Below, piece by piece: positions 20,550-21,500 of a stretch of DNA of 21,500 nt. Source of the DNA: a virus (lineage: Duplodnaviria; Heunggongvirae; Uroviricota; Caudoviricetes); IMG/VR virus record IMGVR_UViG_2529292759_000004; one strand, 5' to 3'. Each line of letters begins with the position of its first letter. Positions within the stretch are counted from its first letter, which is position 1. A program made the translations under genes and the position numbers. Below the pieces are notes generated by a model, which worked only from the letters and a program-made list of their open reading frames with translations, had not been told where the DNA came from and ran no database searches.

Positions 20550-21306
20550 TGCAGCCGGTGCGATAGCTACAGGGCTTTTATCTCTCATTATTCCTGTTCC
20601 ACTGACGACAGTTCAGTGGGCCAATAAACATTATTACCTTCCTAAAGAGTCGTCTTATACCCCGGGGCGATGGGAAACACTGCCGTTTCAGGTTGGCATC
20701 ATGAACTGTATGGGCAACGATCTGATTCGCACGGTTAACCTGATTAAATCTGCCCGTGTTGGTTATACAAAGATGTTGCTGGGAGTGGAGGCTTATTTTA
20801 TTGAGCATAAATCACGCAACAGCCTTCTTTTTCAGCCCACGGACTCAGCTGCTGAAGATTTTATGAAATCTCATGTTGAGCCAACGATAAGGGATGTTCC
20901 TGCATTGCTGGAGCTGGCTCCATGGTTCGGAAGAAAACACCGCGATAATACGCTCACCCTGAAGCGTTTTTCCTCCGGTGTGGGGTTCTGGTGTCTGGGT
21001 GGTGCGGCAGCAAAAAACTACCGTGAAAAATCCGTGGATGTGGTCTGTTATGACGAGCTTTCCTCGTTCGAACCGGATGTTGAAAAAGAGGGTTCGCCAA
21101 CCCTGCTGGGGGATAAACGTATTGAGGGCTCTGTATGGCCAAAATCCATTCGCGGCTCGACGCCTAAAATCAAAGGCTCCTGCCAGATCGAAAAAGCCGC
21201 TAACGAGTCGGCACACTTCATGCGTTTTTATGTGCCCTGTCCGCACTGTGGGGAGGAGCAGTATCTGAAATTTGGCGATGATGCCTCGCCTATGAGACGA
21301 CAATAA
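20521..21306 (+). pseudogene. A: Terminase large subunit A, N-terminal fragment only (261 aa against about 641 aa in lambda)
   Basis: ATG at 20521 overlaps the nu1 3' end as in lambda; similarity to lambda A (...YYLPKES...GRWETLPFQ...HCGEEQYLKFGD) stops near 21285 and is followed by DASPMRRQ-stop. Confidence 0.75.
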
Positions 21307-21500
21307 CTCAGTCCGCCTGGCGCCGATTATTCTGGCCGGTTTTGTAACCTGAGTGTCATTTACATGATCCAACAGGAAATGGCGTGACGCTCAATACTTC
21401 TCAGGTCAGTTACTATATGACTCAGCGTAAGAAAGGTATAACTCAGCATATCTCGGCCATGAAGGCTGGTATCTCAGTCCGTTCTGGTCGTCGGATCGAA

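Follow-up and report, generated by a model that had tools for sequence, protein, structure and literature searches.

The large terminase subunit gene (terL) of a lambdoid prophage stops after about 261 codons near the right edge of the stretch of DNA analyzed here (21,500 nucleotides, hereafter the window), and the sequence beyond it does not resemble terminase. The question raised by this locus is whether the packaging and morphogenesis arm has been lost from the prophage, as the preliminary description proposed, or whether it lies beyond the point at which the window ends. To answer it, the break in terL was placed to the base, the DNA beyond it was identified, and the same junction was followed into a second assembly in which the sequence continues. 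The features concerned are collected in Table 1.

Table 1. Features of the terL locus and of the late region of the prophage, in window coordinates.
Feature	Position	Strand	Basis
Porin annotated OmpC, between Q and the lysis genes	15076-16158	-	Annotation
Iss, serum-survival lipoprotein (Bor family)	17949-18242	-	Annotation
Small TonB-family gene, 108 aa as annotated	18723-19049	+	Matches TonB_C
cosN, exact lambda 12-nt cohesive-end sequence GGGCGGCGACCT	19813-19824	+	Single exact match in the window
Nu1 homolog, terminase small subunit, intact, 182 aa	20001-20549	+	ORF; PF07471 Phage_Nu1
terL 5' part (lambda gpA family), codons 1-257	20521-21290	+	PF05876; 100% identity to intact terL
Target-site duplication CTCGCC, left copy	21285-21290	+	Same hexamer directly after the right IS end, L003 13181-13186
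ISEc10 (IS21 family) left end, first 210 bp of the 2,410-bp element	21291-21500	+	100% to RefSeq-annotated copies
IS-encoded TerL tail, ATG AGA CGA CAA (MRRQ) and stop TAA	21292-21306	+	Read from the sequence; aligned to intact terL and another ISEc10 copy
istA 5' end, first 39 of 499 codons	21384-21500	+	RefSeq istA WP_000174402.1 at the equivalent position

The cut itself is as first described. From the ATG at 20521, the annotated start of the identical terL in Nissle 1917 and ATCC 11775, the frame runs to a TAA at 21304-21306 and encodes 261 aa (the mechanical ORF, which starts at ATG 20479, is 275 aa). It overlaps the end of the Nu1-like gene, which carries the small subunit label in the Nissle 1917 and ATCC 11775 annotations as well. 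The intact terL allele of related strains encodes 642 aa with an ATPase and an endonuclease domain. By BLASTP, the truncated product aligns with lambda gpA without gaps at 73% identity over residues 15-258, with the same end residue numbers in both proteins. PF05876 (GpA_ATPase) is matched at E=2.3e-48 over profile positions 2-209 of 247. The endonuclease domain PF20454, located at residues 323-601 of the intact allele, is absent from the 261-aa product in the domain search, and no NCBIfam model matches this product.

The 5' part of terL is identical at 100% to the intact terL of many E. coli genomes up to position 21291, where the third base of codon 257 is at once the first base of the foreign DNA and, being a T, the same as the native base. 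The stop and the match to lambda gpA that the preliminary description reported both hold; its placing of the end of homology at '...KFGD' does not, as alignment with the intact Nissle 1917 terL carries the native protein five residues further, to P257 (DDASP). The foreign part of the truncated protein is therefore only its last four residues, MRRQ, and the stop codon, which comprises bases 14-16 of the inserted element. A three-way alignment of the window, the Nissle 1917 terL and an ISEc10 copy from MSB1_7C displays the switch directly: the window tracks terL through ...GATGATGCCTCGCCT and then the insertion sequence (IS) from ATGAGACGACAATAACTC. The same boundary was recovered when positions 21000-21500 were searched by megablast against 5,426 complete E. 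coli genomes. The search returned 2,418 records, in which no single place covers more than 58% of the query, and the 100% terL-side matches listed end at 21291. The downstream side alone (21290-21500) returned 898 records, with matches starting at 21290 or 21291. The break in terL is not a chance effect.

The DNA beyond the break is the left end of ISEc10, which begins TATGAGACGACAA at 21291; the preliminary description was right to call it unrelated to terminase. Positions 21290-21500 show 100% identity, over 210-211 bp, to copies carrying the RefSeq label 'IS21-like element ISEc10 family'. This end is matched in 843 of the 5,426 complete genomes; the matches are found on plasmids as well as chromosomes and beside unrelated genes, with up to 22 in a single genome. 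Those listed fall in istA of the 'IS21-like element ISEc10 family' or, among the more distant ones, in an IS21-family transposase gene.

The ends of the element were set from the flanks of five copies combined with a gapped alignment of its left and right termini. The five are the terL insertion, followed at 10771-13180 of the sister scaffold introduced below (locus L003), and the copies at loci L002 (4003-6412), L005, L006 and L007; L008, a fifth extra copy, was left out as it lacks an exact match to the left-end probe. One copy thus lies in terL, two are chromosomal (EAL-domain and Ig-like genes), one lies beside an Ag43 region and one in a plasmid impB gene. Between these unrelated flanks the copies have exactly 2,410 bp in common, from TATGAGACG to CGTCTAATA, and differ by 0-2 mismatches. 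Duplications of 6 bp flank all five (CTCGCC, CTGATC, CCGGGA, CGCTAA and ATTGCC), and CTCGCC occurs once in intact terL. Target-site duplications in the IS21 family measure 4-8 bp. A 7-bp duplication (CTCGCCT) was considered and rejected, given that the seventh base differs between the flanks of L002 and L007 (T on the left, C on the right); because C follows the right repeat in these two copies, the T after the left repeat belongs to the IS. A 5-bp duplication, with the IS starting CT, was likewise rejected, as L005 and L006 have A rather than C before the conserved T.

The terminal inverted repeat of ISEc10 is imperfect, with TATGAGACGACAA and TATTAGACGTCAA agreeing at 11 of 13 positions at the tips and a gapped similarity that extends to about 48 bp, so that the left repeat covers approximately 21291-21338 of the window. 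An ungapped repeat finder did not report these termini. IS21-family termini generally end in 5'-CA-3', which is usual rather than strict or defining; those of ISEc10 read 5'-TATGAG...CTAATA-3' and end in TA instead. Published work describes an ISEc10 insertion in the afa promoter region in ST131 and gives its size as 2,530 bp (PMC8764528), against the common stretch of 2,410 bp measured here, and new ISEc10 insertions have been reported experimentally in CFT073 (PMC7482066). At each of the four copies outside terL the element has split a gene, and the annotation shows a partial pseudogene to one side of it or to both; the sites are next to the Ag43 region and at the EAL-domain gene, an Ig-like/inverse autotransporter gene and the plasmid impB. 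ISEc10 thus often inactivates genes in E. coli.

The open reading frame that the preliminary description saw running off the window from an ATG at 21417, and could not name, is that of IstA, an IS21-family transposase. The start annotated by RefSeq for the identical gene is the GTG at 21384, with an AGGA six bases upstream; the ATG at 21417, which opens MTQRKKGITQHISAMKAGISVRSGRRIE and runs off the window, is codon 12 of the same frame and an alternative start. The alignment of IstA to the IS21 model NF033546 begins at residue 12, hence both starts are possible. The 39-aa fragment encoded in the window has no Pfam match by itself. The full-length IstA of the sister scaffold scores 227 bits against NF033546 (transpos_IS21; cut-off 160, E=3.4e-67). 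Immediately downstream of istA, at L003 12360-13115, lies istB; its product reaches 266.7 bits with NF038214 (cut-off 200) and E=9.5e-62 with PF01695. istB lies beyond the window and was seen in the sister assembly and in other ISEc10 copies. With both proteins above the NCBIfam equivalog cut-offs, as IS21 transposase and AAA+ helper ATPase, the element belongs to the IS21 family by its proteins despite its TA termini.

To follow the locus past the end of the window, the exact sequence of the 261-aa chimeric TerL was looked up, and just two NCBI assemblies, with one contig each, match it. One is the window's own assembly (GCA_000326465.1), whose contig ANYO01000014.1 stops at the same base as the window and is identical to it over the final 10,980 bp. 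The window thus represents the terminal 21.5 kb of a draft contig, broken off within the multicopy ISEc10 repeat. The other is scaffold KB733358.1 of the sister assembly GCA_000353145.1 (locus L003), which has the identical left junction, is 100% identical over the 10,980 bp compared, and spans the whole IS without Ns, with both istA and istB, the right terminus and, after it, another CTCGCC. A simple insertion would join the right end of ISEc10 to CTCGCC and then to TTCGGTCTTAAGTGG of terL, with a right junction expected to read ...GTTGACGTCTAATA, then CTCGCCTTTCGGTCTTAAGTGG. In the sister scaffold, directly after the IS (10771-13180) and the repeated CTCGCC (13181-13186), terL resumes at 100% identity. 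Removing the IS and one CTCGCC in silico leaves 1,016 bp identical to the Nissle 1917 terL, with the frame open. The preliminary description had allowed that sequence further downstream might restore the A reading frame, and in substance it does, the native terL picking up 2,416 bp further on. The right junction was seen in the sister assembly, and for the exact genome of the window it is taken over from there; in GCA_000326465.1 a simple insertion would predict a contig that opens with the ISEc10 right end and continues CTCGCCTTTCGG.

Two runs of N interrupt the sister scaffold, one of 440 bp in the 3' part of terL (13433-13872), standing in place of 493 bp of the reference gene, and one of 430 bp in the S49 protease gene (16995-17424). 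Past the first gap the frame of terL is kept through its final 139 codons, which differ from those of Nissle 1917 at two amino acids, and PF20454 is encoded after the IS. Beyond the IS, the remainder of terL is followed by W, portal, protease, D, E, FI, FII, Z and U. Open frames with 99.3-99.9% identity to ATCC 11775 were found for the end of terL and for W, portal, D, E, FI, FII and Z, and gene calls are also present for the S49 protease and U. The morphogenesis arm is neither deleted nor replaced.

These data bear directly on the other ways in which such a junction could arise. Within the window alone, terL homology ceases at 21291 and nothing phage-like follows, just as it would if the arm had been deleted, or unrelated DNA had taken its place, and only a cryptic remnant ending in terL were left. 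The DNA at the break is an IS end, however, and the sister scaffold, which shares the junction, carries on exactly with terL past a 6-bp duplication and then with the genes from W to U; those head and tail genes, which a cryptic remnant would lack, stand directly after the IS. We thus regard loss or replacement of the arm as extremely improbable, and this part of the preliminary description is contradicted. An artefact would be hardly more credible, be it a chimeric contig end in which reads from an IS were joined to terL, or an erroneous stop in an intact gene. The end of the window is a contig end in a multicopy repeat, precisely where drafts are least reliable; yet the second assembly has the same left junction in contiguous sequence together with a right junction bearing the 6-bp duplication, a signature of real transposition that no assembler would create. 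The stop codon, moreover, lies 14-16 bases inside the IS and does not stem from a point error in terL, so a sequencing or assembly error, which the preliminary description had considered as a source of the stop, is not what happened.

A third possibility concerns events after the insertion, namely that in the genome of the window itself recombination between ISEc10 copies, by inversion or deletion, has since relocated or eliminated the right arm. Its contig does stop within the IS, and up to 22 matches to the IS end per genome would offer substrates for recombination. Against this, both assemblies are identical over the 10,980 bp compared, junction included, and a short-read draft is expected to break in a 2.4-kb repeat in any case; we judge such a rearrangement, to which nothing points, very unlikely. 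These assemblies show directly which IS is present, where it begins and ends, its target duplication, the point at which terL exactly resumes and the order of the genes downstream, and on this basis we consider it highly probable that a simple insertion of ISEc10 explains both the truncated terL and the unread right arm. The IS ends and direct repeats that the preliminary description proposed to look for are present, as the ISEc10 end at 21291 and the 6-bp CTCGCC repeat.

On this reading, ISEc10 transposed into terL at codon 257/258 of a lambdoid prophage beside icd, duplicating CTCGCC. The IS supplies four codons and a TAA, leaving a 261-aa fragment with most of the ATPase domain and without the endonuclease domain. 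The reading frame that runs off the window is istA, and the window ends there only because the draft contig breaks in a multicopy repeat. Directly past the IS come the rest of terL and the genes for head and tail.

The remainder of the prophage is well represented among sequenced strains. Positions 1-21291 of the window are 100% identical to prophages of ATCC 11775, MS7163 and others, in which terL is intact. In ATCC 11775 this prophage sits directly after icd, the attachment region used by integrases of the e14 and phage 21 type. The window opens with the integrase gene, at its end (1-1143, minus strand), and in ATCC 11775 the icd region lies at L010 12637-13887. The gene order of the ATCC 11775 prophage is int, xis, exo/bet/gam, cIII, repressor, cII, O, P, nin genes and Q; after Q follow a porin gene, lysis genes, iss, the small TonB-family gene, Nu1 and terL, and past terL a complete lambda-like head and tail cluster. 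The OmpC-type porin, Iss and the TonB-family gene are three cargo genes of the late region. By eye, a lipobox-like LAVGC is present in a longer in-frame ORF of the TonB-family gene that starts at GTG 18669. Besides the IS the prophage carries small lesions, as a frameshifted ZapA-like pseudogene (2378-2589, minus strand; annotated by RefSeq in the identical ATCC 11775 prophage at L010 16378-16589) and a partial DUF1364 gene (13833-13922, from RefSeq in the ATCC 11775 prophage) are found in it.

Upstream of the terminase genes, cosN, the substrate of terminase, lies 177 bp before the start of Nu1, a position in keeping with lambda, in which cos is at base 1 and nu1 at 191. The cos site is intact, in a prophage whose own cos-cutting enzyme is split. 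Judged by the established roles of the lambda gpA domains, a terminase without the nuclease domain and the C-terminus would neither nick cos nor dock to proheads, and the prophage is probably unable to package its own DNA, terL being split; in this respect the preliminary description, which held the prophage to be defective, was probably correct. Packaging could return if terminase were supplied in trans, or if terL were repaired by recombination. A 292-bp terL query segment has two 100% copies at different loci of ATCC 11775 (NZ_CP033092.2, 2708273-2708564 and within 2857867-2879157), and many related genomes hold 2-4 matches to it. Because of this second identical copy and the matches in related strains, it is conceivable that the split gene could be complemented or repaired from other lambdoid prophages of the same cell that encode an identical terminase.

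ISEc10 is oriented in the same direction as the late operon, and further consequences may be imagined from this arrangement, though we hold them to be improbable. Being sense-oriented and directly after Nu1 and the 5' part of terL, istAB might be strongly transcribed by read-through from the Q-antiterminated late operon upon induction, which would tie bursts of ISEc10 transposition to the SOS response. In addition, the TerL fragment might act as a dominant negative, its putative Nu1-binding N-terminus and ATPase, without the nuclease, hindering the packaging of related lambdoid phages. A scan of the IS for promoters and terminators yielded nothing above shuffled expectation; the lack of an above-chance terminator-like site is compatible with read-through and does not demonstrate it.

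The insertion itself appears to be confined to few genomes. Among the 5,426 complete E. coli genomes, not one spans the junction or carries ISEc10 at this point of terL, and an exact search with the 36-bp left junction gave 0 matches in species-representative genomes and 0 in JGI metagenome contigs. As these searches were empty, the allele is rare, and the insertion looks recent and lineage-restricted.

These results call for a change in annotation: the prophage should be recorded as full-length and lambdoid, with its terL interrupted by an IS, rather than as a remnant without a morphogenesis arm. The 261-aa 'terminase' is best labeled a pseudogene fragment, and the partial ORF where the contig stops is istA. 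They also illustrate that the contig ends of draft assemblies can look like deletions. A single IS in terL probably suffices to stop the prophage from packaging its own DNA, with every other gene left in place.

Compared with known systems, the event is an ordinary one of a known kind, in which a known insertion sequence has entered a known kind of gene. The element corresponds to ISEc10 in its 100% identity, its istA-istB order, its imperfect inverted repeats and its 6-bp duplication, and differs from the known copies in its insertion site alone. The interrupted gene resembles that of lambda gpA in its 73% identity, in the Nu1 gene that overlaps it upstream and in the exact lambda cosN before Nu1; unlike gpA, it is split after codon 257 and so lacks ATPase profile positions 210-247 and the endonuclease domain. 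Sp prophages of E. coli O157:H7 Sakai are reportedly interrupted by IS629 and likewise are lambdoid prophages, complete in other respects, that an IS in one essential gene has disabled instead of the loss of an arm; the IS family and the host lineage are different there, and the defect described here is predicted from sequence.
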